A stretch of DNA of 64,000 nt from Candidatus Poriferisodalis sp. (GCF_965198245.1 NZ_OZ240249.1:1244200-1308199); one strand, 5' to 3'. Positions 15,273-45,730 are shown, counted from the first letter of the stretch. Made by a program: numbers and translations. The notes: generated by a model from the sequence alone, not told the origin.

Positions 15273-15354
15273 GCGTCCCAAACAACGCGCGCCCTAGCTT
15301 CACAGTGCGAAGAGCCGCACGAAGGGACTCATCGGCATCGGTAGCCTGCCGCCC

Positions 15355-17270: not shown

Positions 17271-17331
17271 ACGCAGTCGCCGGGTGGCGACGGGTTAGAC
17301 GCAGTCGCCGGGTGGCGACGGGTTAGACGCA
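17248..17331. repeat. Three perfect tandem copies of a 28-bp unit (GTCGCCGGGTGGCGACGGGTTAGACGCA), each containing the hairpin GTCGCC-gggt-GGCGAC
   Basis: Read directly: units at 17248..17275, 17276..17303 and 17304..17331. Unit 1 is the last 23 nt of the permease gene including its TAG stop. Units 2-3 fill the gap up to the convergent MBL gene stop at 17337. Confidence 0.9.
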
Positions 17332-17336
17332 GCGGC

Positions 17337-17978: not shown

Positions 17979-18049
17979 GTCCGCATCCTAGGAGCGCGGC
18001 AGGCGTGCGTCCCTCGCCCGCCAGCGATAGGGCATCGTCAGGGCGTTGC

Positions 18050-22057: not shown

Positions 22058-22849
22058 GTGCCGCCCCGGTCGAAACGCAGCGCGGTGAGCACCACCGTCA
22101 CCGAGATCACGATCGAGGGCAGCCCGCATCTTGCGGCGTTGATGGTTCGGCCGTCACGCTCGACGGGAAGCGGACCGGCGGTGTTGCTGTGTCATGGGTT
22201 CCCCTCCAAGCAGCGACCTGGCATACCGAACCGCACGTACCAGCTCTTCGCGGAGCGCATTGCCGAAGCGCAGGGCTGGACGGTGCTCGCGGTCAGCATG
22301 CGAGGCTGCGGCGAGTCCGACGGCGACTTTTCCCTGCTCGGATGGATCGACGATGTCGGGCGCTCGATCGAGCACGTCTTGGAAGACGGCTGCCGCGGTG
22401 TGTGGCTGGTGGGCTCCACGACCGGAGGCTCGGTGGCCATCCTTGCTGCTGCACGCGACCCCCGGGTGCGCGGCGTGGCAGCCATGGCGCCGAGGGCCGA
22501 CTTCGACGACTGGGCAGGCGACCCCAAAGCTTTCCTGGCGCACTGCCGCAATGTCGGTGTCATCAGGTCCGAGGACTTCCCGCGCTCGCCAAGCACGTGG
22601 AACCGTGAGTTGAAGCAGAACAGGGCGGTGGACGCAGTGCAGCGACTTACCGACCGGCCGCTGCTGATCCTGCACGGCATCAATGACCGGCAGGTGCCCT
22701 ACGAGGAGGCCCGCCACCTGGCGGAGCAGCATCCCAGTGCAGAGCTGCGCCTCATCGCGGGGGCAGATCACCGCATCCGCCACGACCCCCGAGCCGTCGC
22801 CATCCTGCTGGGCTGGCTGGAACACCAGGCTGCTGCCCGGTACGCCTAG
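22058..22849 (+). CDS. Alpha/beta hydrolase (dienelactone hydrolase / BAAT-like)
   Basis: 263 aa. LLCHGFPS, nucleophile elbow LVGSTTGGSVA, C-terminal ILHGINDRQVP and GADHR (Asp/His of the triad). Confidence 0.75.
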   Translation: MPPRSKRSAVSTTVTEITIEGSPHLAALMVRPSRSTGSGPAVLLCHGFPSKQRPGIPNRTYQLFAERIAEAQGWTVLAVSMRGCGESDGDFSLLGWIDDVGRSIEHVLEDGCRGVWLVGSTTGGSVAILAAARDPRVRGVAAMAPRADFDDWAGDPKAFLAHCRNVGVIRSEDFPRSPSTWNRELKQNRAVDAVQRLTDRPLLILHGINDRQVPYEEARHLAEQHPSAELRLIAGADHRIRHDPRAVAILLGWLEHQAAARYA

Positions 22850-23097
22850 GGGACCTCGCGACCTGCTGCATCGGGGTGGCGGGCGATCATCATGTTGGCG
22901 ATGGAGCGCACCACCGTGGTGCCGTCCTGGTTGACGAGTGCGTGGGTCATCTTGATGATGCCGCGGTCGGGTTTGGAGCGGCTCGGGCGAAGCTCCAGAA
23001 TCTCGATCACGATTGTGAGACGGTCGCCTGGGTGCACCGGTGCCAGCCAGCGCAACTCGTCGAGGCCGGGCGAACCCATGCTTGACGGCCCCAGCAC
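22846..23097 (-). pseudogene. 3'-terminal fragment (last ~72 codons) of a MaoC-like dehydratase gene. Duplicate of the 3' end of 32703..33179 and left boundary of the island.
   Basis: 63/72 aligned residues are identical to aa 85-156 of the intact gene. It lacks the N-terminal 84 codons, including the hot-dog helix. DNA copies are 22879..23094 and 32712..32927. Confidence 0.8.
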
Positions 23098-23283
23098 GTG
23101 ATCTCCCTCGGCGCGCGGACCGCGCAGGTTTGATTCTGACCAGCGGAAACCGAAATGAACGTGTCGTCAGAGCGACGGCGAAACCGAGGAAACCCCGGCA
23201 GGAGCAGCAATTCTCCGTTCAGTTCGCCGTGGGGGGTGCGGCCGCGATTTCTGATCCGAGAGCCCTTCTGCGGCCACTCAGTT

Positions 23284-23652
23284 TCACCAGATTGGCAAGT
23301 CTCGGACCCGAATCCTCGTGGGACTGAGCGAGACGACAGCGCCGGCTTCCAGTGCCTCCGCCAAGACCGGGAGGCTCTCCACAAGCAGAGCCGCATGCGC
23401 ATCCGGCGACTGGTGAGACACGCCTCGCAAGTGGATGACTGAAGGACTCACCGAGCGGCGCCGAAACAGGAGTGCTCCGAAATCCGAATCAGACGTGGCC
23501 ACGACGTACCCATGCTCCGCAGCCCATTCCAGGATGGTCTCATCCGCTGCGGTAAGCATGTCCACGTCGCCGACATGGAGGGTTTCATGGCCGCCAGCCC
23601 TGAGTGCTCCTGCGACTCGTGGAGACAGGTTGGCGTCGAGGAGGATTCTCAC
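23284..23652 (-). CDS. DUF5615-family PIN-like (Mut7-C-type) putative toxin
   Basis: MRILLDANLSPRVAGALRAGGHETLHVGDVDMLTAADETILEWAAEHGYVVATSDSDF is the typical DUF5615 N-terminus. 4-nt overlap with the upstream DUF433 gene. Confidence 0.7.
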   Translation of the reverse strand: MRILLDANLSPRVAGALRAGGHETLHVGDVDMLTAADETILEWAAEHGYVVATSDSDFGALLFRRRSVSPSVIHLRGVSHQSPDAHAALLVESLPVLAEALEAGAVVSLSPTRIRVRDLPIW

Positions 23653-23885
23653 GCAGACAGGGAAGCGGAGAGTTCTCTCTCGCTGACCCGGGCGGCGGCA
23701 AACTCAAGTGCCGCCGTGATGTCGTCCGTCTCGAGATACGGATAGTCGGATAGCAACTCCTCACGGGTCCTGCCAGCGGCAAGCTGTCCCAGCACCGTTG
23801 CAACGGTCACCCGCAGATCCCTGATGCAGGGCAGACCGCCCATGCGGTGAGGATCAACAGTGATCCGGTCCAAGAGCACGGCCAC
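23649..23885 (-). CDS. DUF433-family putative antitoxin
   Basis: 78 aa. ITVDPHRMGGLPCIRDLRVTVATVLGQLAAGRTREELLSDYPYLETDDITAAL matches the DUF433 pattern. Confidence 0.7.
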   Translation of the reverse strand: MAVLLDRITVDPHRMGGLPCIRDLRVTVATVLGQLAAGRTREELLSDYPYLETDDITAALEFAAARVSERELSASLSA

Positions 23886-23969
23886 AGGCTAATCCGCGCA
23901 CGCCCGAAGCACTGCCAGCAATGCTGTCGTGAGATTGCTGGCTGTTCTGCCGTGATTCTGAGCCAACTT

Positions 23970-24075
23970 CTACCGTGAAATCGGCTAACAGGTTCTCGTC
24001 CGCTGCGAACAGCATGTCCACCTGACCGACATGCATCGCCTCGTGGCAGTTAGCACGGGCCCCCTGTTCTCGCGT
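23970..24075 (-). pseudogene. Decayed remnant of a second DUF5615-type toxin gene
   Basis: Minus-strand translation NCHEAMHVGQVDMLFAADENLL parallels GGHETLHVGDVDMLTAADETIL of 23284..23652. The DNA is also visibly similar (about 23990-24045 vs 23555-23600). There is no intact N-terminus or partner antitoxin. Confidence 0.5.
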
Positions 24076-24228
24076 CGGACTTCGTCGGCGCTGGCCCTCA
24101 GTGCGTGGCTTCGGACCAACCATCGGGCCCCCGTCACCTGTCCGGTACGTCTAACCGACCACCCGGCTTGGAGTCCATGGTCGCATTCTCGCCCACTCCA
24201 CGCCGCCAAGAACTTCAAGGACAATGAG

Positions 24229-27200
24229 TCATGACGCGTACGCAAGCAGAGCATCGAGGACTCTGAATGCTTCACCGCGAACCAGTTCGTCGTGATGAGC
24301 CTGATTGCGGTAGGTCCGCAGGCAGCCATAGCAACTCGCTTTCAGGGCGCACGCGCAATCGCCGACGATTTTCCTTGCCTGATCCGTGAGTTGCGCGAGT
24401 TCCTCACGAATCAGGCGGACGTAGCCGGCGCCGCCCGGCACCGAGTCGAAGATGATCAACGCAGTGCCGCCGCCATCAGGAAGAGGACGCAGTGTTCCGT
24501 CGACGTCATCGGTGGGAATGCCGAGCACCGGGGTTGCGGCAAGCAACGATTGCAGGGTGCTGCGCGCTTCGATTCGGCTAAGCGGCCTCTTCAAGTCAAG
24601 TTCGAGTACGTCGGTCAGAAAAGTATGTCCAAGGTCAAGAACGCGCGGTCGTCCGCTGCATTCTCGTTGAGAACCAGGCCTGTTGTGGGTTCTCGGAGGC
24701 TTCTTTCGGTCTTGGTTGACGAGTGGTTCTCCATACCCGCACGTCAGACACATTCGAAAGCCTCGTGATGCCGGTCCAGCGTTGATGGCGGTGATCTGTC
24801 CCTGCCGACTGAAGCGAGCACCGATCGTGACGTTTTCTATCGGTGCCTGCTCCCACGGGGGCTGTTCCCCTTCGTAGTCACTGAAGAACGAACGTGCCCA
24901 ACCCGCTCGAGGCGGCCGGGTCTCCCCAGGCTGTTCCCGACTCCTGTAGCCGATGAAACCGAATTGCGGTACGACGAATTGCCGCTCGGCGATTGGGTTG
25001 CTGCAGGCACTGCACGGTGGCGCGAGGTGATGATCCTCGGCATCGAAATCGCGTCGTACACGAAAATCGCCGCACTTCTGACACTCGGAGTAGGAGCGTG
25101 CATAGAGTGCCCGACCCGGCGGGGCTCGCAATCCGTCGGATTCCCAGATGGCCTTCTTCGCCACCACCTTGGAACCTGGTGCGTACTCGGTGATGCCCCA
25201 GCGCAGGTCTCTGTTGAGATCGAGCGCTCCGGCGTCACGGTCGCCGTCGCGCCAAAGATCCAGTACGGCGACGTCGACCGGGAACCCGTACTTGGGCAGA
25301 ACAACGCGCGTCGCCAAGTAGTCAATCAATGGTCGCTTCTCCAAGGTGGCTTGGACCCGCCTCAGGGCACCTCGGCGGTGGGCTTGCTTGGACGCGGCGT
25401 CGCTATGTCCTTGGTTGGACAATTGGCGCTCTTGTTGGTCTGCGTCTTCGATTGCACGTTCGATCTCTGCCAGATCCTCTCGAATCGATTCAGCGGCGCG
25501 CCTGAGCGAGCCAGCGGGTTCGTCGGCTTGGTTACCAGTAGTGCCTGCGGTCAAGTGGTCGACCCATTCCCACGTCTGAACACCGAGTTCTGGGGCCACA
25601 GCCTCCGGCGTAATGCGAGCTATCGCCCGTCCGAGTTCCTCCGGATATGAACGCAGCCAGTCGACAAATTCGTCGACCGCAGCCGGTCGGCCATCTGTGG
25701 GGCGAAAGAACGACGCCACATCCCTGTGCGGTTCGCGCCCCGTGGTCGCGATGCGGCGCTCGAATGCCGCGAACGCCACGGCGTGAATATGCCGTCGCAC
25801 AATCTGCGAATTCCGTAGCGACACGATCGGCACCTCGACGTGTCCGTCGATGAGACGCTGAGGCTCTCTGAAGTGATGGAGGTCGTGGCTGCGGCGCTGC
25901 GCGAATGTGACAACCAAGGCCGACTTGCCGGCTCGCCGGCCGGCCCGGCCGGCCCTCTGCACATAGTTGGCCGGCGTCGGCGGTACGTTGCGCATCAATA
26001 CCGCCTGCACGTCGCCGACATCGACGCCAAGTTCGAACGTCGTCGTGCAGCTCAGAGCGTTTATCCGGCCATCGAGGAAGTCCTGCTGATATGTGCGGGC
26101 TTGGTCGGCTGAGAGCTGACCTGTGTGCTCTTGAACGCTCATGCCCGAAGGAACCAGCGTCGTGTAGAGCCGCCCATAGTGATCGGAGGCAGACAAGTCG
26201 ACATCGGTCACGGGACGCAGCGAACCCGCGCACTGCCAAGTGGGACATACGTCGTTCACACTTCGCCATGCAACCTGCCGACAGGTACGGCACACATAGG
26301 CGGGATGTCCTTCTCGGGCTGGCACGAACCGGATCCACTCGGGGTCGATTGCGAAGGTGTGTCCCGTTTGTCTTCCGCTGCGGGACGGGAATGCCTTGTC
26401 CCAACCGCTGCCCCGGTCGGTGAGCCATCTCCATAGGCCGTCGAGAATCACCCGCTCGTCGGCCACTGCACCGCGACGGTCCAGGACCTTGTGCAGGTAA
26501 TCCATGCGACGATTCGTGCCACGGGTGGGCAGCCATGACAGCACCTTCCCGGCGCTGCCTTCCGCGCGAACCGTGGTCACGACGTTTCGCGGAGCGAACA
26601 CCTGCTCATCGATGCTCACGCCGTCAGGCAGCCAGACAGCGGCCTGCATTCGCAATGTGTCCAGCAAGACCGCCACGATGTCGAATACCTCGGCATCGCT
26701 GAAACCGAGCTGTCTCAGAGGCTCGGGCGGTCGAGCGCGTCGCGGCACGGCGACAGTGATCTCGCCGAGCCCGCTGCCGTCGAGGCTTTGACGACGATCT
26801 GTCGCCAATACCTCGGCCATCAGCCACGTTCGCACTTGTCGCCGCTTGGAGTCGCCGCTGGCATCTGGGTCGAGAACAAGATGGTCTTCTGCGAGCCTCT
26901 GGATAGGCAACACGAGATCGTCGAACCGCAAGTCGTCATCGCTGTCCCGGTCAATTGCCAGCCAGATCATCCGGCGCTGGACGGCGCGGGCGTAGGTGCG
27001 TTCGAGGTACGGCGCGAAGAAGGCCGCGTCTTGGCGGCTGTCCGCAAACATCAGCAGCTTGCGACCCTCGCCGATCTCAGGCACGACACCAGCCGGGATG
27101 TCTCCGGGCGGCAGCGCCTGATACAGGCTGGTTGCGGCCACTGCGACGGGCGCGTCTTGCCCGGTGAAGAAGCGCAGCACGATCTGGCCGTTCGTGCGCC

Positions 27201-28764
27201 CGGAACAAGTGGGACATCGGCGGAGCGGGTCATTTGGGCGCTTGGGCTTGGCGAAGACGATTCGTTCTGAGGCACCGGTCGCTCCGCAAGGACAACGTTC
27301 CTCCCCTGAGTCGCTCAGGCGACCGCAAGCAGTACAGACATGTCGGTAGTCGACCTCAGCCTCCACCTCTTCGTCGTCGACAACAGCGGCCTCGTCCTCG
27401 TCGTCGGTTTCGAGTTGTCGGCCGATCAGCAGGTAGGCCAGATTGGTTCGCTGCGGCGGTGCTTGGACCAGCCGGTCCGAGTGCTCAGGTTCTGCGGCAT
27501 CGATAGTGGCATCTTGGAGACTTCCCACGAGGAAACCCGCACCACAGCGAACGCAAAGGCCGAGTTCGAACATCTGCGAGTCGACACCGCTGTCGTCACA
27601 GCTCGGGCAGGTGTGATGTCGCTCAAGTTGCACCCTCGGTGTCGCGGGGTCGTGTGCCGGTGATCGGCACACGAAGGCGCCTTCTAGAGCCCGCAGCATG
27701 TAATGGAAGCGAGCTGGTGCATCGGTATCCGGCTCATCGACGGACGGTGTCACGATGTCCTGTCGCGCAGATTCGGTTTCGTGGTGCTCGATCAGCTCAC
27801 CAAACAGATCGGAGGCGAATCTCGCGATTCGGGACGAGGCACCCGTGCCGGTACCGAGCGTCGCAGAGGTGCCAACGAACTGCAGGCGACCGGGCTGGCT
27901 TTGCACCACGCGGTCGCGCAGACGCCGCAGCAGCATGGCGATTTCAGCGCCACGCGCGCCGTTGTATACGTGCATCTCGTCGAGCACGATCCAGCGCCAA
28001 TGCTCTCCGGTCGGGCCGTCGAACAGTGTCGTATCAACGGGCCGCAGCAGCAGATACTCGAGCATTGCGTAGTTCGTGAGCAGAATGTGGGGCGGGCGCT
28101 CTCGCATCTCTTCCCTCGACACAAGTTCGCCGTTATCGGGGTCAGCGCCCGTAGCGCCACGATGTGCTTCTACGCCCTCGCGGTGCCGCTCTCGCGTTGC
28201 GCCGATATACCGCCCGAACGTGATCTGGGGAAAGGGCCGCAGTAGATCGCGTAAGCGCTGCATCTGATCGTTGGCGAGCGCATTCATCGGGTAGAGCAAC
28301 AACGCTCGCACCCCGGGTTGACTCAGCGTCCCGGCATCGCCTTCGGTAAGGAGTTGATGCAGAATCGGGAAGAGATAGCACTCGGTCTTACCCGATCCCG
28401 TGCCAGTCGCGATGACTAGATTGCGACGCGCCACAGCCTTGCGCAGAGCGCCTTCCTGATGCTGATACAGAGGTCGCGCTGGCGGGAACACGCCCGGGTC
28501 CAGTTGAGTGAAGCGCTCATGCAGCAGCCCTGTCGAGACAAGATCACTCAGCGAGGCGCCGGTGGCATAAGCGGGAGTCGGTTGACGAAATGGGCCCTTC
28601 TCGCTCTGGAATCGCTCGTCCAGAGCAAGATGAACTTCTGCGCGCAGCGACGCGTCGGCCGGCGAGTAGCGGGTCTTCAAGTAGCGCCGATACGACTCGC
28701 CGATGCTCTTCGCAGCGGCGGCAGGATCGAATCCTGCTGCGTCGGAGTTGCGGTACTCAGTCAC
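24229..28764 (-). CDS. Large (1511 aa) SF2 DExH-box helicase with a multi-Zn-ribbon insert between the RecA lobes and a C-terminal DUF1998 (MrfA-type Zn-binding) domain. DruE/DrmA+DrmB-like.
   Basis: Motif Q/I YQHQ...ATGTGSGKTE, motif II DEMH, motif III TSATLG, motifs V-VI TTTFELGVDVGD and QRAGRAGRR. CxxC pairs (HHTCPSCDD..CVRCG, CTACG..CPCG, CPTCSG) lie between the lobes. C-terminus CLTCGYGE ... CACALKASCYGCLRTYRNQAHHDELVRGEA is the DUF1998 signature. Confidence 0.85.
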   Translation of the reverse strand: MTEYRNSDAAGFDPAAAAKSIGESYRRYLKTRYSPADASLRAEVHLALDERFQSEKGPFRQPTPAYATGASLSDLVSTGLLHERFTQLDPGVFPPARPLYQHQEGALRKAVARRNLVIATGTGSGKTECYLFPILHQLLTEGDAGTLSQPGVRALLLYPMNALANDQMQRLRDLLRPFPQITFGRYIGATRERHREGVEAHRGATGADPDNGELVSREEMRERPPHILLTNYAMLEYLLLRPVDTTLFDGPTGEHWRWIVLDEMHVYNGARGAEIAMLLRRLRDRVVQSQPGRLQFVGTSATLGTGTGASSRIARFASDLFGELIEHHETESARQDIVTPSVDEPDTDAPARFHYMLRALEGAFVCRSPAHDPATPRVQLERHHTCPSCDDSGVDSQMFELGLCVRCGAGFLVGSLQDATIDAAEPEHSDRLVQAPPQRTNLAYLLIGRQLETDDEDEAAVVDDEEVEAEVDYRHVCTACGRLSDSGEERCPCGATGASERIVFAKPKRPNDPLRRCPTCSGRTNGQIVLRFFTGQDAPVAVAATSLYQALPPGDIPAGVVPEIGEGRKLLMFADSRQDAAFFAPYLERTYARAVQRRMIWLAIDRDSDDDLRFDDLVLPIQRLAEDHLVLDPDASGDSKRRQVRTWLMAEVLATDRRQSLDGSGLGEITVAVPRRARPPEPLRQLGFSDAEVFDIVAVLLDTLRMQAAVWLPDGVSIDEQVFAPRNVVTTVRAEGSAGKVLSWLPTRGTNRRMDYLHKVLDRRGAVADERVILDGLWRWLTDRGSGWDKAFPSRSGRQTGHTFAIDPEWIRFVPAREGHPAYVCRTCRQVAWRSVNDVCPTWQCAGSLRPVTDVDLSASDHYGRLYTTLVPSGMSVQEHTGQLSADQARTYQQDFLDGRINALSCTTTFELGVDVGDVQAVLMRNVPPTPANYVQRAGRAGRRAGKSALVVTFAQRRSHDLHHFREPQRLIDGHVEVPIVSLRNSQIVRRHIHAVAFAAFERRIATTGREPHRDVASFFRPTDGRPAAVDEFVDWLRSYPEELGRAIARITPEAVAPELGVQTWEWVDHLTAGTTGNQADEPAGSLRRAAESIREDLAEIERAIEDADQQERQLSNQGHSDAASKQAHRRGALRRVQATLEKRPLIDYLATRVVLPKYGFPVDVAVLDLWRDGDRDAGALDLNRDLRWGITEYAPGSKVVAKKAIWESDGLRAPPGRALYARSYSECQKCGDFRVRRDFDAEDHHLAPPCSACSNPIAERQFVVPQFGFIGYRSREQPGETRPPRAGWARSFFSDYEGEQPPWEQAPIENVTIGARFSRQGQITAINAGPASRGFRMCLTCGYGEPLVNQDRKKPPRTHNRPGSQRECSGRPRVLDLGHTFLTDVLELDLKRPLSRIEARSTLQSLLAATPVLGIPTDDVDGTLRPLPDGGGTALIIFDSVPGGAGYVRLIREELAQLTDQARKIVGDCACALKASCYGCLRTYRNQAHHDELVRGEAFRVLDALLAYAS

Positions 28765-29626
28765 CCCAGAAATCCTCGGCGGAGTTCTCGATGTGATGCA
28801 GGCCTAGGGCGAGCAGGATGCTGCGCGTCGTCAACAGTGGGGCGATCTCGGCAGCGTCACGTAACGCAGTCGCAGCCTCAGCCGTGTCTGCCCGTCCTGA
28901 CGAGCTGTCGATCAGGTGAAATGCGGCTGCGAGGACATCTGCGGGGAACTTGTGCCACGCAGGCCTTTCCGACTCAGGCCGGACCAAGTCGAGCAGGGTG
29001 AGTTGCCGGGCGCTGAACCTCTGGGCGTAGGAGTAGACCGCATTGTGCGATGAGCGCCAATGCCTGATGCGCTCACGGTCTGGTGACCTGCGGCTGCCCG
29101 GTGCTCGGGCTGGCTCGTGCCAAGTGTTGGTCAGCATCTCGAACGCCGCATCGAGGTAGCCGCCCCACTGCAGCGGCAATGAACCGGATGGCGGCAAGGC
29201 CTGCTGCAATTCCCGCAACCTCTCTGGCCCGAACTCGTCGAGCGGAGGGGTGACGGGCTCGATTCGACCTTCAATTGGTGCCGCGCCAGTTGCGGGTCGC
29301 CAACCGCTGAAGCGTTGCCACCGGTCGAGGCTCGCGTCGGCGAGATCGCTCGGACTACTGCCGACGAACGGATTGTCTAGCGCCGCGGCTACGGTCGGGA
29401 GGGTCTTCCACAGGCGCTCCAGATCCCAATCTGTGTATCCGGCCGAGCCGTGAGCGGATGCGACGATGGCTAACTCGAGCTTGCGGAGAACCTGCGCCGG
29501 AAGCTCGGCGAGCATCGGGGCCAGACGCGGCAACAGACTGTCAGAGGTCAACACCAACTCGACGAGGTCGACCAAGGTATTCGATGCTCCTGCATTCGTC
29601 GCACTGAGCTGTGCCGCGGCCTCCAT
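28757..29626 (-). CDS. Hypothetical 289-aa protein, middle gene of the helicase operon
   Basis: Its stop overlaps the helicase start by 8 nt. Mostly helical-looking, with no motif recognised. Confidence 0.6.
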   Translation of the reverse strand: MEAAAQLSATNAGASNTLVDLVELVLTSDSLLPRLAPMLAELPAQVLRKLELAIVASAHGSAGYTDWDLERLWKTLPTVAAALDNPFVGSSPSDLADASLDRWQRFSGWRPATGAAPIEGRIEPVTPPLDEFGPERLRELQQALPPSGSLPLQWGGYLDAAFEMLTNTWHEPARAPGSRRSPDRERIRHWRSSHNAVYSYAQRFSARQLTLLDLVRPESERPAWHKFPADVLAAAFHLIDSSSGRADTAEAATALRDAAEIAPLLTTRSILLALGLHHIENSAEDFWGD

Positions 29627-29680
29627 GGCACTAGCGAGTTCGTCGGTTGCGGAGGCTGCTGCGCTGATATCCAGGCTCTT

Positions 29681-32335
29681 TTAACGGGCGGCACCTGCGA
29701 CGACAAGCTCGAGCGCCTCGAGTGGGGCCTCGGTGCGAAGACCCTCAAGTCGGATCCGCCGCTGCAGTTCCGATCCGACGAGCACATCGCGTGTGCCTGC
29801 TTGGCCGGGAATCGGCAACGTTGGCGAGGACCACTCATCGGCCAAGGTGACTTCGGCCACGTAGGGACCCGGCGGCAGCAGCAGGATTGCCTCGCATCGG
29901 CCAGCGACGTCGTCCTCCACTTCGACGCAAACGGGCTGCTCCCACGGCCGATGCTCTGACCAGAGCCGGAGTTGGCGACCAGTGAACTGGCGGTTCTCCG
30001 TCCACTCGGCGCTGACAAGGCACTCGGCGGTCTCCGGGTCGAGTTCCGTGCTGATCTCCAAGTCGCTCACAATGAACTGTGCCTCTACCACGGCGATGGG
30101 CTCGCTCAGGTCGTCGACATGGAGGATGAGATCTAGCCGAGGAGCCGTCGCAGCGGCGATTGTCGTCCGCAGTTCGGCAAGCGAGAAGGACCACCACCCG
30201 ACCGGGCTATTGGTTTGCAGAGGCCCGATCTCGTAAGGGCTTGCGTCACTGCGCAGTTCAAGTCGCAGTGTTGCCGGCCGACCGCATCGAACCAAGACCG
30301 ACCCGACTGCGCCTGATTCAATCTCGTCGAGTCCGATTCGCAGCCGCTCAACTCCGAGGGTTGGGAAGGATCCGTCGGTTCGGCGAAGCGCCCAGGTCAA
30401 TCGAGGAATCGTGACAGCGAAGGCGGTGCCGCCGGCTGTGAGGGGAACGGTGTCCTGGCCTGCCTCAAACGACAACCTCGCTTCTGAAACTCGCGCACCG
30501 CCTTCGAGAAGGAGTTCGGCATCCGCGGTGACGCGAACCTCGACGACCTCGCGCGGTACGAAGATGCGATCAGGGACATCGACGGCGAGTCCCTGAATGA
30601 CGGTTATGTCCTCGCGAATGTCGCTGCCCAATGGGCCAGACACCTCGATCGTGCCCGCGAATGCAGGGGCAGAAGGCAAGAGCGCCGCCAATTCAAATGC
30701 GCCCTCCGCACACGGCAAGTCTGCGAGTCGCGTAGTGGTCGGCGAGCGATTCTCGGCCGACGCATCTGTGGCAGGTTCGCTTTCGCTTCGAATCTCGCGC
30801 CAACGGACGCGCCACCTTTGTGGATCGGCGTCCTCGGGCATCGCAATACTCGGTGGCTCAGCGAACACGCCGCCGCCGAGCATCCCTCTTGTGCCACTGA
30901 CCGGCGCCGTCGCCAATTTGGGCCGTGCGGGGGCTCGGGCCACGGCCAGCTCCGTCAATTCCTCATCGCCGCCCGGCCCAGGAGGAGGCTTCACCAGCAC
31001 GGCAGCTACCCCCTCGAGGTCGAAGCTTCTCAGCACCCAGCCATTCCATGCGCCTGCCCGCGGAGGAAGTTCCTCTGGACTCGGGATGGGCATTCCATCG
31101 GAGTCGGTGATGGCTACGCCTGGTGATGTCAGAATCAACGCTTGGCTGGCGGGCAGCCGGTGCTGCTGACGTGTGAGATTGCCGGAGGCATCGAACACGT
31201 ATGCGTGAACCCGCTCCAAACCCGCAAACTGTCGCTCCGACTGCCGGTTGGCCGAGTGCTCGCGCCACTCAAGCGTTGCAGTCCAGCCATGCGACGGCGC
31301 GAGCGGGATATCGCGCGGATCATGCCTGCGCGTCGCGAATCTGTGTGTCATAGCACCCTGGATCAGCCACCCGCCTTCATGCGGAAAAGGCGGAAGCGTC
31401 ATGTACGGACCATCACACGAGTAGCGGTCGATTCGGACAGTGGGTCGAGGCGGACGTCGCCCACGCCGGGCCGAACGTCGTTCGTCGTTGAGCAGGGCCC
31501 GCGTCAAGTACCGGGGCAGTCCTGCGTCGGCAGAGAGTTCTGCGATGAGGTCGGTCGCGTCACGTCCGAGTTCGGCGATGTCGGCGGCCGTGTCGATCAC
31601 CCGCTGCAGAAGGTCGCTGGCAAATTCGTCGCCATACTCGAAGAAGCGTTGTACTGGCTTCGCAAGTCCTGACCAGCGGGTGCTGGACTGTCGTATGCGA
31701 CCGATGAGCTCGTCGGCATCCCAGATGCCATCGCGCAATCCGGCAAACACCAAATCTGCGACTTCGTCTGCGCACGCAGCAGGGATGCCTCCGTGCATGA
31801 GAATCGGGCTCACATACGCGAGCCAGCGTTCTCGAGCCGCCGCGTAGCTGAAGTTCTCGAGTCCGAGTTCGTCCAGTGCCGACAGAAACGCCCTGCCTAC
31901 CTTGGACTGATCGACACCTGATGAGAGGTACGGGGCAATGGCAATGTTGGGCCAGAACGTACCTTCGTCGTAACAGCGCGCACCTTCGGCGGCGAGAAAT
32001 GCTGCAGTCGAGGCGGGGTAGCGCTTCAGGCGATCAGGCACACCGTGCTGGGCGACCTTGAGGACGACGTCTCTAGCCCTCTTGAGAATCGATCCATCAG
32101 CGGAGAGGTCGAGTTCGCTGACAATGCGAATGCCGTCGAAATGACGTCGAAGCTCGCGTTCGACGAAGTACGGGTTGTCGGTGGATTGCCGCGGTGCTTG
32201 CTGTTCATCATCCGCATTACCCGTGGACATATGTGAAACGTATCCGGCTTGCATCAGCCGATGCCCGATGTGTGGCCGCAGGATCTCGAGGCCAGAGCTG
32301 TCCGTGCTGGTGCACTGGGCAGTCGATGGGCCCAA
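29681..32335 (-). CDS. Hypothetical large protein (up to 884 aa), first gene of the helicase operon. Helical N-terminal half and a beta-rich (Ig-like?) C-terminal half.
   Basis: Long ORF with coding-like composition, 54 nt upstream of the 289-aa gene. I could find no Walker, nuclease or methylase motif. The listed start is a TTG; Met28 (32254) or Met36 (32230) are alternatives. Confidence 0.6.
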   Translation of the reverse strand: MGPSTAQCTSTDSSGLEILRPHIGHRLMQAGYVSHMSTGNADDEQQAPRQSTDNPYFVERELRRHFDGIRIVSELDLSADGSILKRARDVVLKVAQHGVPDRLKRYPASTAAFLAAEGARCYDEGTFWPNIAIAPYLSSGVDQSKVGRAFLSALDELGLENFSYAAARERWLAYVSPILMHGGIPAACADEVADLVFAGLRDGIWDADELIGRIRQSSTRWSGLAKPVQRFFEYGDEFASDLLQRVIDTAADIAELGRDATDLIAELSADAGLPRYLTRALLNDERRSARRGRRPPRPTVRIDRYSCDGPYMTLPPFPHEGGWLIQGAMTHRFATRRHDPRDIPLAPSHGWTATLEWREHSANRQSERQFAGLERVHAYVFDASGNLTRQQHRLPASQALILTSPGVAITDSDGMPIPSPEELPPRAGAWNGWVLRSFDLEGVAAVLVKPPPGPGGDEELTELAVARAPARPKLATAPVSGTRGMLGGGVFAEPPSIAMPEDADPQRWRVRWREIRSESEPATDASAENRSPTTTRLADLPCAEGAFELAALLPSAPAFAGTIEVSGPLGSDIREDITVIQGLAVDVPDRIFVPREVVEVRVTADAELLLEGGARVSEARLSFEAGQDTVPLTAGGTAFAVTIPRLTWALRRTDGSFPTLGVERLRIGLDEIESGAVGSVLVRCGRPATLRLELRSDASPYEIGPLQTNSPVGWWSFSLAELRTTIAAATAPRLDLILHVDDLSEPIAVVEAQFIVSDLEISTELDPETAECLVSAEWTENRQFTGRQLRLWSEHRPWEQPVCVEVEDDVAGRCEAILLLPPGPYVAEVTLADEWSSPTLPIPGQAGTRDVLVGSELQRRIRLEGLRTEAPLEALELVVAGAAR

Positions 32336-32378
32336 AATGCGTTGCCGAACCGGGCGGCGTGTGTTCTAGCGTGAGGTC

Positions 32379-32651
32379 ATGACAGCGGGCATGATGGCAG
32401 CGACACAGCTTGTCGTCGAGGCGTGGGCGGTACTCGTAGCCGCCGCGGGCATCGTCGCCAGCGTGCTCGGCACCGGCTTGGGCATCACCTTCCACCTCAG
32501 CGGACGCATCGACCACCAGTCGGATCGCATCGACCACCAGTCCGACCGCATCGACGGCGTGACCGCCGAGGTCGCCTTGGTGCGTGAGCGCGTAGCACGC
32601 CTGGAAGGCAGCTCCGGCACACCCGATCCGGGTCCGTTGCAGCTCGCCTGA
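32379..32651 (+). CDS. Small (90 aa) membrane-anchored protein with a tandem heptad repeat (RIDHQSD x2.5)
   Basis: N-terminal TM helix (AVLVAAAGIVASVLGTGLGI). The repeats are encoded by 21-bp units at 32505..32525, 32526..32546 and a partial unit at 32547..32555. Divergent from the 884-aa gene (44-bp gap). Confidence 0.4.
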   Translation: MTAGMMAATQLVVEAWAVLVAAAGIVASVLGTGLGITFHLSGRIDHQSDRIDHQSDRIDGVTAEVALVRERVARLEGSSGTPDPGPLQLA

Positions 32652-32702
32652 GCAAGCCCCTCTCGACGCTGCCCGCAGTGAGCGATCAGCACTTCGAGGG
32701 CT

Positions 32703-33179
32703 TCATGTGCGGCGGGCCATCATCATGTTCGCCACCGCGCGCACCACCGTGGTGCCGTCCTGGTTGACGAGTTCGTGGGTCATCTTGATGATGCCGCGGT
32801 CGGGCTTGGAGCGGCTCGGGCGAACCTCCAGAATCTCGACCACGAGGGTGAGAGGGTCGCCTGGATACACCGGTGCCAGCCAGCGCAGTTCGTCGAGACC
32901 AGGCGAACCCATGCTCGATGGCCCCAACAGGTATTCACCCAGCATCCTCATCATGATCGAGCCGGTATGCCATCCCGACGCGATGATCCGGCCATAGACG
33001 GTGTTTCGGGCTGCCTGGGGATCGATGTGGAAGGGCTGCGGGTCGAACTTACGGCCGAATTCGATGATCTCGGCCTCGTCGATGGTCGTCGTTCCGAACG
33101 TAAAACGTTCACCGGCCTCGTAGTCGTCGAACCATCGCTGCGGGCAGGGAATGTCGCTGGGCATCGTGACAGTCTGCAC
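32703..33179 (-). CDS. MaoC-like (R)-hydratase / hot-dog fold dehydratase, intact copy
   Basis: 158 aa. FDPQPFHIDPQAA...GRIIASGWHTGS is the MaoC hydratase motif. Lies directly downstream of aceE on the same strand. Confidence 0.8.
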   Translation of the reverse strand: MQTVTMPSDIPCPQRWFDDYEAGERFTFGTTTIDEAEIIEFGRKFDPQPFHIDPQAARNTVYGRIIASGWHTGSIMMRMLGEYLLGPSSMGSPGLDELRWLAPVYPGDPLTLVVEILEVRPSRSKPDRGIIKMTHELVNQDGTTVVRAVANMMMARRT

Positions 33180-33221: not shown

Positions 33222-35924
33222 TCAGTGCGTTGCCGAGGACCAGGGGTCGGCGCTGTCGGTGGCCAGGCCGTAGCGCTTGATGGCCTCGGCCGCCGCAGTC
33301 GCGTCGATCTCGCCGAGCTCGGCAAGGCGCCACAGCACCGCCACTGTGGTGTGCTCGGCAGTCACCTCGAAGTGCTCCCGCAGCCGGCTGCGGGTGTCGC
33401 TGCGGCCGAATCCGTCGGTGCCCAGCGAGGTGTAGTCGCGGCCGATCCAGCGTGACACCTGGTCGGGCACGGCTCGCATGAAGTCGGTCACGGCCACGAC
33501 CGGCCCGGAGCCGTCGGCCAGCTGCCGGGTCACGAACGGCACCTGCTGGGGATCGTCGGGATGCAGCGTGTTCCACCGCTCGCACGACAGTGCTTCTTCA
33601 CGCAACGCCTTGTACGAGGGGGCGCTCCACAGGTCCACCCCAACGTCGTGCTCGGCGGCCAGCAGGTCGGCCGCGGCCCGGGCAGCACCTTGCGCCGAAC
33701 CCGAGAACAGGATGGTGCCGGCGTGCGAGCGACCTTCCGGAGCCGGGGCGAAGCGATACAGCCCAGCCAGCAGATCCGATGTCGAGAGGTCGTCCGGCTC
33801 AGGGGGCTGGACGTAGTTCTCGTTGTAGATCGTCAGGTAGTAGAAGATGTCCTCGCCCACGCCGTACATGCGCCGGATCCCGTCGCGCACGATCGTCGCG
33901 AGCTCGTAGGCGAACGCCGGGTCGTATGCCTGACATGGCGGCACGACCGAGGCCAGCAGCGGCGAGTGGCCGTCCTGGTGCTGGAGACCCTCGCCCATCA
34001 AGGTGGTGCGCCCGGCCGTGGCCCCCATGAGGAAACCGCGACCCCTCATGTCGGCCAGCGCCCAGATCATGTCGCCCACACGCTGGAAGCCGAACATCGA
34101 ATAGAAGGTGTAGAAGGGCACCATCGCCACGCCGCGGACGGCATAGGAGGTGGCGGCGGCGGTGAAGCTGGCCAGCGCCCCGGCCTCGGTGATGCCCTCC
34201 TCAAGGATCTGGCCGTCGATGTGCTCGGTGTAGGACAGCAGCAGGTCGTGGTCGACGGGCTCGTACAGCTGGCCCTGGCTGGCGTAGATGCCGAGCTCGC
34301 GAAACAGCGAGTCCATGCCGAACGTGCGGGCCTCGTCGGGAATGATCGGCACCACACGGTCGCCGAAGCCCGGCTCTCGCGTCATCGCCCGCAGCATCCG
34401 GGTGAAGGCCATGGTGGTCGACACCGCAAACTTGCCCGAGCCCGCCGAGAACTCCTCGAACGGCTTCGAGCTCGGCATCGGCAGTGCCTTGCGGCACCAG
34501 TTGCCCATGCGTTTGGGCAACGGACCGCCCAGAGCCTTCCGGCGGGCCACCAAGTACTCGTGCTCGGCACTGCCGGGCTGGGGGCGGCAATAGGGCGGAT
34601 CGTCAGGGTCGAACTCGGCGTCGATCTCGTTGTGGAGCCGCAAGCGCTCCCGGATGGTCATGAGCTGGGTCCGGTTCAGCTTCTTGATCTGATGGGTGGC
34701 ATTGCGTGCTTCGAGGTCAGGTCCCAACGACCAGCCCTTCACAGTCTTGGTCAAGATGACGGTCGGGCTGCCCTCATGCTCCACGGCCGCCTGGTAGGCC
34801 GCGTACAGCTTCTTGTAGTCGTGACCGCCTCGGGGCAGGGTCTGCAGGTCCTCGTCGGAGAGGTGCTGGACCATCTCTCGCAACCGGGGATCGGGCCCGA
34901 AGAACCGCTCGCGGATGTAGGCCCCGCTTTCCACCGAGTAGCGCTGGTACTCGCCGTCGATGGTCTCGTTCATCTTGTTGAGCAGTGCGCCGTCACGGTC
35001 CCGGGCCAGCAGGTCGTCCCAGCGGCCTCCCCAGATCACCTTGATGACGTTCCACCCAGAGCCGCGGAAGTTGGCCTCGAGCTCCTGGATGATCTTCCCG
35101 TTGCCACGCACGGGCCCGTCGAGACGCTGCAGGTTGCAGTTCACGACGAAGATGAGGTTGTCGAGGCGTTCCCGTGCGGCGAGGTGCAGCGCACCGAGGG
35201 TTTCGGGCTCGTCGGTTTCGCCGTCGCCCACGAAACACCACACCTTCGACTCGGCCGTGTTGTCGATACGACGGTTGTGCAGGTAGCGGTTGAAGCGGGC
35301 GTGGTAGATCGCCATGATCGGCCCGAGGCCCATCGACACCGTCGGGTACTCCCAGAAGTCGGGCATGAGACGCGGATGGGGGTACGACGACAGCCCGGTG
35401 CGGCCGATCTCGCGCCGGAAGTGCTCGAGGTCGGTGTCGTCGAGGCGGCCCTCGAGATAGGCCCGTGCGTAGATGCCAGGTGCGGCATGGCCCTGGATGT
35501 AGATGTGGTCGCCGGGCTCGCCGTCATCCTTGCCTTGCCAGAAGTGGTTGAAGCCCACGTCATAGAGCGCCGCGGAGCTGGCAAACGTGGACAGGTGGCC
35601 GCCGATGCCGTCCGCCCAGGAGTTGGCGTGGGTGACCATTGCGACGGCGTTCCAGCGGATGAAAGCTCGAAGGCGCTTCTCAATCCCTTCATCGCCCGGG
35701 AACCACGGCTCGTCTTCGGGGGCGATGGTGTTGATGTACGGGGTCGAGACGGTGGCGGGAAAGTCGACCTGCAGCTCGCGGGCCTTGGACATCAGACGCC
35801 GGATCAGAAAGCGTGCCCGGTTCTTGCCCCGTTCCTCGACAACTGCTTTGAACGACTGCAGCCAGTCGTCGGTCTCGTCGGGATCGATGTCGGGGATCTG
35901 CTCATGCAACCCGTCAAAGAGCAT
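33222..35924 (-). CDS. aceE: Pyruvate dehydrogenase E1 component, homodimeric type
   Basis: Start at Met95 of ORF 33222..36206 (MLFDGLHEQIPDIDPDETDDWLQSF), giving 900 aa. ThDP motif GDGETDEPE...NLIFVVNCNLQRLDGPVRGN. Confidence 0.9.
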   Translation of the reverse strand: MLFDGLHEQIPDIDPDETDDWLQSFKAVVEERGKNRARFLIRRLMSKARELQVDFPATVSTPYINTIAPEDEPWFPGDEGIEKRLRAFIRWNAVAMVTHANSWADGIGGHLSTFASSAALYDVGFNHFWQGKDDGEPGDHIYIQGHAAPGIYARAYLEGRLDDTDLEHFRREIGRTGLSSYPHPRLMPDFWEYPTVSMGLGPIMAIYHARFNRYLHNRRIDNTAESKVWCFVGDGETDEPETLGALHLAARERLDNLIFVVNCNLQRLDGPVRGNGKIIQELEANFRGSGWNVIKVIWGGRWDDLLARDRDGALLNKMNETIDGEYQRYSVESGAYIRERFFGPDPRLREMVQHLSDEDLQTLPRGGHDYKKLYAAYQAAVEHEGSPTVILTKTVKGWSLGPDLEARNATHQIKKLNRTQLMTIRERLRLHNEIDAEFDPDDPPYCRPQPGSAEHEYLVARRKALGGPLPKRMGNWCRKALPMPSSKPFEEFSAGSGKFAVSTTMAFTRMLRAMTREPGFGDRVVPIIPDEARTFGMDSLFRELGIYASQGQLYEPVDHDLLLSYTEHIDGQILEEGITEAGALASFTAAATSYAVRGVAMVPFYTFYSMFGFQRVGDMIWALADMRGRGFLMGATAGRTTLMGEGLQHQDGHSPLLASVVPPCQAYDPAFAYELATIVRDGIRRMYGVGEDIFYYLTIYNENYVQPPEPDDLSTSDLLAGLYRFAPAPEGRSHAGTILFSGSAQGAARAAADLLAAEHDVGVDLWSAPSYKALREEALSCERWNTLHPDDPQQVPFVTRQLADGSGPVVAVTDFMRAVPDQVSRWIGRDYTSLGTDGFGRSDTRSRLREHFEVTAEHTTVAVLWRLAELGEIDATAAAEAIKRYGLATDSADPWSSATH

Positions 35925-35945
35925 GGGTTCTAGTGTCGCACTTGG

Positions 35946-41362: not shown

Positions 41363-41468
41363 GGCCGAGCGAGTTTGCAGTGGATTCGGGTTGCAGAACA
41401 ACGCCGCCAGCGAGGCCGGGGCCCGAGCGGCCCGTGAGCGTAGCGAACATGAGCGGAGCGTTCGTCTG

Positions 41469-43130: not shown

Positions 43131-43229
43131 GGCACCCCTCTCAAACACCCCGAAACGTTCCGCGTAGCGAACCCTGGACTTACCTATGCTGCCGACAGGT
43201 TTCGAACTCGACTTGTTTGGTGAGGCCGT

Positions 43230-45718: not shown

Positions 45719-45730
45719 GATTGGCCCCCT

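Follow-up and report, generated by a model that had tools for sequence, protein, structure and literature searches.

Integrase-poor transfer and defence hotspots between core genes keep a fixed position, hold defence cargo that varies from strain to strain, lack mobility genes and have a lower GC content. Kirchberger et al. (2017; PMC5361080) have described orphan 3' ends, attributed to homology-facilitated illegitimate recombination, at the effector loci of Rhs, CDI and T6SS systems, and Jackson et al. (2009), as cited in that paper, are also credited for 3'-end displacement arrays. In E. coli, integrase elements at the genes for tRNA-Phe and for tRNA-Leu carry Druantia III, ARMADA II and Zorya II, and a mostly nuclease-less 'Type III-like' branch of Druantia has been described in the same work (PMC12458937). 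The type III Druantia of M. smegmatis is formed by MSMEG_1253/1254, and DruH is reported to be toxic when expressed alone (PMC13316683), while in the DruH of E. coli an N-terminal globular domain is followed by six Ig-like subdomains and then by a C-terminal domain (bioRxiv 10.64898/2026.05.12.722862).

The locus described here lies in a 64-kb window (the whole stretch of DNA analysed, 64,000 nucleotides), which is part of a metagenome-assembled genome of Candidatus Poriferisodalis, a sponge-associated member of the Acidimicrobiia. In Candidatus Poriferisodalis the interval between two convergent core genes, a MaoC-like dehydratase gene (maoC) and an alpha/beta hydrolase gene (hyd), is a hypervariable hotspot. 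The close relatives used for comparison were obtained from ENA, NCBI or Logan, and the matches found in JGI were distant only. The features of the locus and its flanks are as follows.

22058..22849, plus strand: alpha/beta hydrolase ('hyd'), the conserved left flank (Pfam Hydrolase_4/Abhydrolase_6).
22846..23107, minus strand: orphan maoC 3' fragment, whose repeat copy (22878-23107) corresponds to maoC nt 240-469 (gene length 477 nt).
23108..23283, minus strand: 176-nt spacer, with the palindrome GCGCGGTCCGCGC at 23113-23125.
23284..23652, minus strand: DUF5615/PIN_10 PIN-like putative toxin (Pfam DUF5615 6e-24, PIN_10 1.5e-08).
23649..23885, minus strand: DUF433 putative antitoxin (Pfam 2.4e-22), with a 4-nt overlap with the toxin gene.
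23989..24047, minus strand: core of a decayed DUF5615 5' fragment (direct repeat, 74%), inside 23886-24137.
24138..24154, minus strand: hyd 3'-end remnant of 17 nt, TTAGACGTACCGGACAG, matching 22833-22849 at 14 of 17 positions.
24229..28764, minus strand: DruE-type YprA-family helicase, 1511 aa (PADLOC DruE1 2.8e-181, DruE3 7.4e-170).
28757..32230, minus strand: DruH-like partner of ~1157 codons, with an 8-nt overlap with DruE and an in-frame TAA at 29681-29683.
32320..32337, minus strand: possible short remnant of the hyd stop region, TTTTGGGCCC..., at the p90-proximal edge of the module.
32379..32651, plus strand: p90, a small protein with DRIDHQS repeats, found at the empty site.
32703..33179, minus strand: intact MaoC-like dehydratase, 158 aa (Pfam MaoC_dehydratas 2e-15, residues 26-125).
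33222..35924, minus strand: aceE (pyruvate dehydrogenase E1), the conserved right flank.

The maoC fragment, the toxin-antitoxin (TA) pair with its neighbouring toxin pseudogene, and the DruE and DruH-like genes together use up all coding capacity between 22849 and 32342. At the right flank, the 994-aa aceE ORF is probably over-extended, the calls in relatives being 900 aa.

A sequence-only reading of this DNA had proposed one integrative element of ~9.8 kb (22879-32933) that had entered at the 3' end of maoC and was bounded by direct repeats of ~216 bp copying that end. The repeat itself was borne out and is slightly longer than proposed, as the direct copies at 22878-23107 and 32711-32940 are identical at 204 of 230 nt (88.7%), with longest exact runs of 34, 31, 20 and 19 nt. 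A chance origin is ruled out, because, with both strands of the window searched, the left copy finds no second ungapped match better than 104/230. The right copy belongs to an intact gene, which contains the complete hot-dog domain, including the N-terminal half, that a MaoC-like (R)-specific enoyl-CoA hydratase requires, and which is 97.9% (nucleotide) and 99% (amino acid) identical to the maoC of a conspecific genome, L001. The ORF of the left copy (22846-23097) begins at codon 80, and the fragment is non-functional because its N-terminal half is missing; a Pfam scan of it returned no match, and the complete hot-dog domain is not present. After the repeat copy the fragment continues into a 30-nt tail of its own, reading ...ARHPDAAGREVP, and then into a stop that overlaps the stop of hyd.

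The two maoC copies differ by a dS of 0.28 at a dN/dS of 0.27 (true orthologue pairs, 0.08-0.22), and the divergence of the fragment, which took place under purifying selection, looks like that of functional orthologues. In the insert-free relatives L004/6/7/11/13/14 the maoC/hyd junction can be aligned without a break to the segment 22800-23107, and both the tail of the fragment and its fusion to the hyd stop match the genuine junction in these six. The fragment could alternatively be an old, decayed in-situ duplication or a mixed-strain assembly artefact, unrelated to the arrival of the island; it is closest to the maoC of the resident species (88.7%, other species at most 87.8%), and a strain chimera is conceivable in a metagenome assembly. 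We nevertheless hold such an origin to be very unlikely, as the mainly synonymous divergence is unlike neutral decay, the fragment is absent from L001 and from all other relatives compared, the tail and the hyd-stop fusion reproduce a genuine junction, and a copy of 89% identity whose C-terminal tail differs is not something that an assembler would make. The proposal that a displaced end stayed at the far junction while an incoming end completed the gene fits these observations, the fragment being still fused to the hyd end. The further idea of a foreign replacement copy stands in so far as the copies are of different lineages; either of them may be the native one, because no sampled lineage is closer to the fragment than the resident maoC. 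A protein search with the fragment for a donor lineage scored 86 candidates, none closer than 71%, and exact-sequence look-ups of the MaoC and DUF5615 proteins found no record.

The limits of the insertion are given by L001, which is ~96-97% identical in the flanks and whose empty site reads hydrolase / p90 / maoC / aceE with a single maoC 3' end, so that the predicted synteny break is confirmed. Relative to L001 the insertion extends from 22849 to ~32342; an accessory insertion is therefore real, but its limits are not those of the two maoC copies, and p90 and the right copy lie outside it. Its presence at the empty site shows that p90 does not belong to the insertion; it was found without the helicase module in L001, L002, L008 and L009, and its GC3 (0.82) is core-like. 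The composition of the insert agrees with the lower GC that had been noted for parts of it, both overall (62.9% versus 66.7-66.9% in the flanks) and in codon usage (GC3 of 0.68-0.71 in island genes versus 0.80-0.89 in core genes). On the left side hyd shares 96.8% identity with L001 as far as its stop codon, with 2 differences in the last 19 nt and then none over 89 nt, a pattern that would be compatible with a homologous crossover near the hyd stop. Identity between the window and L001 varies from 73 to 100% in 200-nt windows, and this mosaic is a sign of frequent recombination only. The whole window was scanned with Rfam and for tRNA genes without a match, so no tRNA or tmRNA target is involved. 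Flank duplications were also sought at two other strain-specific inserts in the window, and none were found.

Related loci indicate how the insert is built up. In L081, L083 and L088 the order is aceE-maoC-p90-DruH-DruE-hyd, with one maoC copy, no TA pair and no maoC fragment, and L089/L090 follow the same order up to DruE, inside which their contigs end. The helicase module thus occupies the same p90 junction in three complete related loci and in a fourth cut off in DruE, and the p90/DruH junction sequence is the same in L081/L083 and in the window. No integrase, transposase or recombinase domain was found in the scanned hotspot genes of the window, L002, L003, L005 and L081-L090, which upholds the earlier remark that such genes are absent and extends it to all scanned variants of the hotspot.

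These comparisons bear directly on the single ~9.8-kb element, which would have been integrated by a site-specific recombinase at the maoC 3' end, with the two copies as attL and attR and the integrase since lost. Such an element would account for a direct repeat of a gene 3' end flanking foreign-looking DNA with the gene kept intact, a crossover core could lie within the 34- and 31-nt exact runs, the two maoC copies differ in lineage, and Druantia III defence islands ride integrase-bearing elements at tRNA genes of E. coli (PMC12458937). It is however highly improbable and has been largely refuted by the module-bearing relatives with one maoC copy, since the repeats do not delimit the polymorphic unit, as is also evident from the break in L001 (22849/~32342). 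Moreover, p90 lies inside the proposed unit and yet is kept at the empty site, the maoC fragment is located in a layer of its own with repeats of the hyd end on either side, two lineages are combined in the mosaic module, the maoC remnants in L003 (37 nt) and L005 (54 nt) have other breakpoints, and no recombinase was present in any variant examined.

The separate layer measures 1.29 kb (22850-24137), contains the maoC fragment together with the DUF433/DUF5615 pair and the toxin pseudogene, and is bracketed by the hyd 3' end and a 17-nt remnant of that end. DUF433 and DUF5615 are encoded by two small, adjacent and overlapping genes with the domains expected of a type II TA system, and are accordingly named putative antitoxin and toxin; the same pair is present in L003, L005 and L085. 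The decayed toxin noted earlier is a real remnant (blastn, 82.5% over 40 nt to the intact toxin gene), but it comprises only ~60-130 nt, derived from a DUF5615 gene's 5' part. The 176-nt spacer had no significant match in any locus compared, and its junction with the maoC fragment (23107/23108) would be an illegitimate joint.

The 17-nt remnant was established by a mismatch-limited pattern search combined with a conserved 74-nt spacing. Besides the real hyd end it is the sole match with at most 3 mismatches in the 64-kb window (0.22 expected by chance), and it is located 74 nt past the DruE stop, the distance from the DruE stop to the hyd stop being 74 nt in L083 and 73 nt in L085. Gapped local alignment of the region downstream of DruE with the hyd end and with the spacers of L083, L081, L085 and L086 was noisy and not significant. 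A possible third hyd remnant directly upstream of the window's DUF433 gene was not significant against hyd; its equivalents in L005 (57 nt) and L003 (47 nt), likewise directly upstream of DUF433, are clear. In the intergenic region between p90 and the DruH-like gene, a decayed hyd 3' remnant was sought by local alignment, which was not significant; only a short positional match, of 32320-32337 with TTTAGGCGTAC in the p90-upstream regions of L001, L009 and L002, is seen there, and the feature is listed as possible.

The helicase genes, previously taken as a three-gene operon, are two, as an in-frame TAA divides what is a single gene into the ORFs of 884 and 289 aa. DruE carries the Pfam domains DEAD, Helicase_C and MZB, and YjiV_N is found in all close homologues, which together give the YprA-family domain set (DEAD, Helicase_C, MZB/DUF1998, YjiV_N) of the DruE helicase of Druantia type III. 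The C-terminal PLD nuclease domains of type III-A are absent from it, the Pfam matches ending with MZB at residues 1411-1482. Homologues of the DruH-like partner are single proteins of ~1157 aa, and the codon at 29681-29683 is TCA in L083 and L085, so that a TCA->TAA nonsense change breaks the gene and the present genome does not have the intact gene pair of Druantia type III. The partner has been knocked out independently at least two times, which fits the reported toxicity of DruH expressed alone (PMC13316683).

The window's DruH-like protein gave no match in Pfam, PADLOC and NCBIfam scans, no DruH profile in PADLOC was matched by any of 33 members of the DruH-like family, and comparison of the family with PDB chains by sequence returned a chance-level match only. 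An AF2 model of P0002 (pLDDT 82) displays a beta-sandwich array between two helical domains, one N-terminal and one C-terminal, and this predicted architecture matches the published description of DruH. Foldseek, run against a PDB copy that did not yet include the newly deposited DruH structures 28XY, 28YA and 28YB (bioRxiv 10.64898/2026.05.12.722862), retrieved generic multi-Ig arrays (TM ~0.12); such matches would support the beta-sandwich array, and not homology to any solved protein. The two-gene module is an actinobacterial, Druantia type III-like system whose DruH-like partner escapes current profiles. Nucleotide identity of DruE is 87.5% to L085/L086/L090 and ~77-78% to L081/L083/L088, whereas the DruH-like gene is ~91% identical to L083, to which DruE is ~77% identical, a pattern that identifies the window module as a recombinant of two module lineages.

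The explanation that we consider probable, with moderate confidence, is serial accretion of cassettes without an integrase, each by one homologous and one illegitimate crossover that leave displaced 3' ends behind. Each layer would arrive on DNA of another strain or species. One crossover would be homologous and fall within a flanking core gene, which acts as the anchor, and the other joint would be illegitimate and fall within the recipient's 3' end of the same anchor gene; the incoming DNA would then provide the whole 3' end, and that of the recipient would be pushed outward as an orphan remnant, a process termed homology-facilitated illegitimate recombination or '3'-end displacement'. The arrangement that characterizes it, an intact gene accompanied by same-orientation orphan 3' fragments with cargo between them, is found for maoC, hyd and DruE.

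As to the order and direction of events, we infer that the first layer is p90, a gene of core-like character that the empty site contains too, and that the second is the Druantia type III-like module, an old pair of genes (DruE plus its DruH-like partner, the latter knocked out here), which has the same junction in relatives. The third layer, the 1.29-kb block between the intact hyd end and the 17-nt hyd remnant, would have come later, with the toxin pseudogene, the DUF433/DUF5615 pair, the 176-nt spacer and the 230-nt maoC 3' fragment as its cargo. The maoC fragment may represent the displaced native maoC end of the lineage in which the TA block was first acquired through a maoC anchor, and may then have been carried into the present genome, still fused to hyd, by a second event anchored in hyd. 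This two-step history is a reconstruction, because no donor genome with the junction of TA pair, spacer and maoC fragment was found.

Comparable remnants recur among the relatives, and the cargo of the hotspot includes Druantia, TA pairs, AAA_14/DUF4143, Fic, PIN and an HNH-motif protein. The maoC 3' remnants of L005 and L003 differ in tail type as well as in breakpoint, hyd 3' remnants of 102-106 nt lie beside the AAA_14/DUF4143 ATPase in L002 and L005, and L084 contains a 381-nt duplicate of the DruE 3' end. In L005 a joint from DruH nt 331 to maoC nt 424 displays 2 nt of microhomology, which is weak evidence of an illegitimate joint, and it is the only joint with both parents known. A recombinase acting in trans, whose gene lies at another place in the genome or on a helper element, could also insert integrase-less cassettes serially at the hyd and maoC 3' ends; the cassettes would bring a copy of the target end, in the manner of integron cassettes or tRNA-gene satellites, and old att remnants would accumulate. 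It could likewise produce the observed clustering, in which all hyd remnants fall in the last ~106 nt of the gene (17, 47-57 and 102-106 nt, within ~100 nt of the stop) and those of maoC in the last 240 nt. In its favour, the same cargo is always associated with the same remnant length (ATPase409 in L002/L005, the TA pair in L003/L005), and the cassettes, of one or two genes each, are too small for autonomy. We regard such a recombinase as unlikely, given that no conserved motif or inverted repeat was seen at the inner remnant ends, that remnant lengths vary between cargo types, that like scars occur in DruE (L084) and DruH (L005), which are implausible att sites, and that the examined regions of the 64-kb window contain no candidate recombinase. 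An as yet unrecognised cassette-capture mechanism serving the hotspot, whether such a trans recombinase or a self-perpetuating cycle of loop-out and re-insertion through the duplicated gene ends, appears quite doubtful; if it existed, capture would act again and again on the two convergent housekeeping genes, within their final ~100-240 nt, and the locus would be an integron-type collector of defence cassettes. Overall, recombination scars account for the remnant pattern better than att sites do.

The case is instructive and fairly ordinary, namely a layered patchwork of anti-phage and TA genes between two housekeeping genes without an integrase. A duplicated gene 3' end beside foreign DNA is usually taken as an att scar, and the lesson for annotation, drawn here from comparison with relatives, is that the same footprint can arise without an integrase, probably as a by-product of recombination-driven cassette turnover. 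With its readable stack of scars, comprising remnants of maoC, hyd, DruE, DruH and a toxin gene, the locus is a possible worked example of how an integrase-free defence hotspot is built up and eroded in an unculturable sponge symbiont. It also contributes an actinobacterial Druantia III-like module with a DruH-like partner outside current profiles.

Compared with the type III Druantia systems of M. smegmatis and E. coli, the module shares the two-gene operon with overlapping genes, a partner of similar size (~1157 aa versus 1132 and 1119 aa) and a DruE with DEAD, Helicase_C, MZB/DUF1998 and YjiV_N domains, and the predicted N-terminal helical domain, beta-sandwich array and C-terminal helical domain of the partner resemble E. 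coli DruH. It differs in that the partner lies outside the PADLOC DruH profiles and carries a nonsense codon in the present genome. Its DruE is short (1511 aa) and without PLD nuclease domains, like the 'Type III-like' branch (PMC12458937).

With integrase islands and satellites, which enter a tRNA or protein gene at its 3' end and bring a replacement end with them, the locus has in common a defence cargo that includes a Druantia III-type system, a duplicated gene 3' end, an intact target and an atypical composition. Unlike these islands, neither the locus nor the related hotspot variants examined contain an integrase, the repeat is not the boundary of the polymorphic unit, and the present locus is layered, with remnants of three different genes. 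The Rhs, CDI and T6SS arrays offer a closer parallel in arrangement, as they also consist of an intact gene followed downstream by same-orientation orphan 3' fragments of earlier alleles, with serial additions, strain-variable breakpoints, no integrase and one conserved anchor side. The displaced ends here come however from housekeeping genes on both sides of the hotspot and not from polymorphic toxins, and the cargo consists of defence and TA cassettes instead of effector-immunity pairs; the mechanism is inferred in both. The fixed site between core genes, strain-varying cargo, lack of mobility genes and lower GC are those of integrase-poor hotspots, from the usual form of which the locus is set apart by unusually legible, nested 3'-end remnants of both flanking genes, which make the order of events partly reconstructable.

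The island is layered rather than a single element, as comparison with related loci shows. A scan of species-representative genomes with MaoC returned 15 close loci, of which most belong to Candidatus Poriferisodalis and all to sponge-associated Acidimicrobiia. The flanks of one of them, L001 (NZ_OZ244925.1), are 96-97% identical to those of the window, and L001 is therefore conspecific. Its gene order is acyl-CoA dehydrogenase / two small genes / hyd / p90 / maoC / aceE, where hyd encodes an alpha/beta-hydrolase (22058-22849, plus strand, in the window), p90 a small protein with DRIDHQS repeats and maoC a MaoC-like dehydratase. Because the window holds extra DNA from 22849 to ~32342 and L001 only 13 nt in its place, the accessory insertion proposed by the sequence-only reading is real, and its lower GC content was also correctly called (62.9% vs 66.7-66.9% in the flanks; GC3 of 0.68-0.71 in insert genes vs 0.80-0.89 in core genes). 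Alignment to L001, however, puts its limits at the stop codon of hyd and in the region upstream of p90, not at the two maoC copies that had been taken to bound one ~9.8-kb integrative element. The p90 gene (32379-32651, plus strand), previously assigned to that element, lies outside the insertion, has a core-like GC3 of 0.82 and occurs without any helicase genes in three relatives (L002, L008 and L009). The anticipated empty site of hydrolase / maoC / aceE with a single maoC end exists in L001, where p90 stands between hyd and maoC; in L004, L006, L007, L011, L013 and L014, maoC and hyd are directly convergent. The p90 protein contains tandem DRIDHQS heptads, and its L001 copy is longer by 7 residues (21 nt; indel at ~32522), so that repeat number varies within the species. 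Scans for tRNA genes and Rfam families found none in the window. The aceE ORF (33222-36206; 994 aa, GTG start) overlaps the divergent RNase H-domain gene 35946-37010 by a 5' extension; it is probably over-extended, as relatives' calls of 900 aa would place its start near 35924.

Further loci, from sponge metagenomes, were found via close homologues of the helicase genes, which form a two-gene Druantia-like module.
24229-28764, minus strand: DruE helicase (PADLOC DruE1 2.8e-181, DruE3 7.4e-170; Pfam DEAD, Helicase_C, MZB)
The three-gene operon described earlier does not hold, because the 884-aa and 289-aa ORFs share one frame and their homologues are single proteins of ~1157 aa, which makes them one gene (true start near 32230), split by a TAA at 29681-29683 where L083 and L085 read TCA. 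The product of this DruH-like gene and 33 family members have no matches in Pfam, PADLOC or NCBIfam. The AlphaFold model of the intact homologue P0002 (pLDDT 82) has an N-terminal helical domain (~20-246), a beta-rich stretch (~264-818), for which Foldseek matches were multi-Ig/FN3 arrays only, and a C-terminal helical domain. Cryo-EM of Escherichia coli DruH (1119 aa) shows a globular domain at the N terminus, then six Ig-like subdomains and a domain at the C terminus (bioRxiv 10.64898/2026.05.12.722862), and the M. smegmatis type III system pairs a DruH of 1132 aa with a DruE of 1667 aa, encoded by overlapping genes (PMC13316683). Since partner length and predicted architecture resemble those of published DruH, we take the module for a Druantia type III-like pair in which the partner would be DruH-like and too diverged for current DruH profiles. 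The window DruE is without PLD nuclease domains, as in the mostly nuclease-less 'Type III-like' branch (PMC12458937). The nonsense codon in the DruH-like gene has probably rendered the module inactive in the window genome. In-frame stops arose independently at codon 850 in the window (TCA to TAA) and at codon 109 in L088 (~9869-9871); they may reflect a fitness cost, given a report that DruH alone is toxic when expressed in M. smegmatis (PMC13316683). The module is also mosaic: its DruH-like gene is ~91% identical to that of L083, its DruE is ~77% identical to that of L083 and 87.5% to those of L085, L086 and L090, and identity switches near 28.8-29.1 kb, a pattern that marks it as a recombinant.

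In L081, L083 and L088, the order is aceE / maoC / p90 / DruH-like / DruE / hyd, with a 74 nt spacer between the DruE and hyd stops; L089/L090 follow the same order up to DruE, where the contigs end. These loci (L089/L090 as far as DruE) carry one maoC copy and lack the TA pair, and the p90-to-DruH junction sequence is identical in the window, L081 and L083. The module is thus an old occupant of this site in several lineages, unconnected with the maoC duplication, which speaks against a single element. In the window, the sequence TTAGACGTACCGGACAG (24138-24154) lies exactly 74 nt past the DruE stop and matches the hyd end (22833-22849) at 14/17 positions; besides hyd, it is the sole match with at most three mismatches in the 64 kb (0.22 expected by chance). 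This remnant indicates that the window once held DruE-74 nt-hyd, like L083 and L085, and the block 22850-24137 reads as a later insertion 17 nt inside the hyd end. Besides a unique 176-nt spacer, the block comprises:
22878-23107, minus strand: maoC fragment
23284-23652, minus strand: DUF5615 (Pfam), PIN-like toxin candidate
23649-23885, minus strand: DUF433 (Pfam), antitoxin candidate of the PIN-like pair
~23989-24047, minus strand: toxin pseudogene, a decayed 5' fragment of a second DUF5615 gene (sequence similarity)

The duplicated maoC 3' end itself was borne out by a repeat search of the window, which gave a 230-nt direct repeat (22878-23107 / 32711-32940) identical at 204/230 positions, the longest exact matches being 34, 31, 20 and 19 nt; the runner-up ungapped match of the left copy in the window, on either strand, reached 104/230.
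32703-33179, minus strand: intact maoC (158 codons; Pfam MaoC_dehydratas 2e-15)
The right copy is nt 240-469 of this gene, and the left copy, which lacks the 5' part of the gene, runs into its own 30-nt tail and a stop codon overlapping that of hyd; it has no Pfam match. The stretch 22800-23107, hyd end plus fragment, aligns contiguously to the maoC/hyd junction of six insert-free relatives (79-82% identity). This agrees with the topology suggested before, in which the displaced end sits at the far junction while the incoming one completes the gene, and by alignment the stretch is a genuine ancestral-type junction, carried along. Fragment and intact copy differ at 10, 2 and 14 sites in codon positions 1, 2 and 3 (dS 0.28, dN 0.077). 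The resulting dN/dS is 0.27, against 0.08-0.22 for true orthologue pairs over the same codons, indicating that the fragment diverged mostly inside a working gene of another lineage and not by in-place decay; the foreign origin of one copy was accordingly a sound call. The fragment is closest to the maoC of the resident species itself (88.7%), ahead of the other species sampled (82-88%), and a protein search with the fragment identified no donor lineage among the 86 candidates scored. The window hyd is L001-like: the two copies differ at two sites within the final 19 nt, one of them in the stop codon (TAG vs TAA), and agree across the preceding 89 nt, which is consistent with a homologous crossover very close to the hyd end. 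A perfect 13-nt palindrome, GCGCGGTCCGCGC (23113-23125), lies 5 nt from the fragment's inner end in the 176-nt spacer, which is otherwise without matches.

The most economical model would give each event one homologous and one illegitimate joint. Linear donor DNA carrying an anchor gene and cargo would replace recipient DNA, and an illegitimate joint inside the recipient anchor gene, downstream of the homologous crossover, would leave intact anchor / new cargo / orphan 3' remnant / older content. A layout of intact gene, cargo and orphan 3' remnant is found for hyd in the window, L002, L003 and L005, and its mirror image for maoC in the window, L003 and L005. Layers and remnants are directly observed in the sequences; from them we infer the mechanism and event order, and two steps would suffice for the window. 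In a lineage with a plain maoC/hyd junction, a maoC-anchored event would have put the TA block at maoC nt 240, leaving that lineage's native maoC end joined to hyd; a hyd-anchored event would then have brought maoC fragment, spacer, TA pair and pseudogene into a genome already holding the Druantia module.

Comparable scars recur in relatives. In L005, a hyd 3' remnant of 57 nt lies immediately upstream of DUF433, a piece of DruH (nt 162-331) adjoins a maoC 3' remnant of 54 nt, and a hyd 3' fragment of 106 nt is next to an AAA_14/DUF4143 ATPase, the ATPase that in L002 adjoins a 102-nt hyd fragment. In L003, DUF433 is preceded by a 47-nt hyd remnant, and a maoC remnant of 37 nt is still joined to hyd. 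The three breakpoints of the maoC remnants and their differing tail types indicate independent events, and the sole joint with both parental sequences known shares 2 nt. In the more distant L084, the module (10001-18011) lies upstream of aceE, between it and RNase H, neighboured by VapBC, AbiEii and an IS1595-type zinc-ribbon gene. Upstream of the module, 381 nt of the DruE 3' end are duplicated (8653-9033), the same kind of scar in a different gene. Cargo of the hotspot variants examined consists of Druantia, TA pairs, AAA_14/DUF4143 ATPases, Fic, PIN, an HNH-motif protein and p90. As the earlier reading had reported for the island, none of the hotspot genes scanned in these variants yielded an integrase, transposase or other recombinase domain, and a trans-acting or self-perpetuating cassette-capture mechanism at the hotspot seems to us quite unlikely. 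The sole cargo between maoC and hyd in L012 is a 225-aa protein (10565-11242) with zinc-ribbon and HNH-type motifs by eye. The ATPase genes, some truncated, turn up repeatedly in relatives as single-gene cargo, to either side of maoC, perhaps with a role in defence or possibly mobility:
L002: 10957-12186
L003: 13387-14085
L005: 8522-9811, 10631-11941 and 16612-17841
L081: 7638-8903
L086: 4619-4966
L088: 7182-8447

Two other strain-specific inserts are absent from L001, at 11616-15332 (GC 61.7%; neither flank duplication nor mobility gene) and 43131-45731 (GC 61.6%; no flank duplication), the latter beginning right after the stop of a lipoate ligase / lipoyl synthase fusion gene (41277-43130).
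11909-13501, minus strand: HEAT-repeat protein
13467-15272, plus strand: N6/N4 DNA methylase
43230-44771: Eco57I/N6 methylase
44768-45718: PstI/BsuBI-type restriction endonuclease
Short patches at 71-89% identity to L001 (16233-16632, 17133-17432, 22705-22741, 35622-35921 and 37022-37621; background 96-100%) suggest frequent recombination with diverged alleles.

For orphan 3' ends at Rhs and T6SS loci, the same logic as in the proposed mechanism has been advanced under the name C-terminal displacement (PMC5361080). The locus is a new, well-documented instance of phenomena that are already known, namely defence hotspots without an integrase, 3'-end displacement and, in Actinomycetota, Druantia III-like systems, and it includes a DruH-like partner missed by current profiles.
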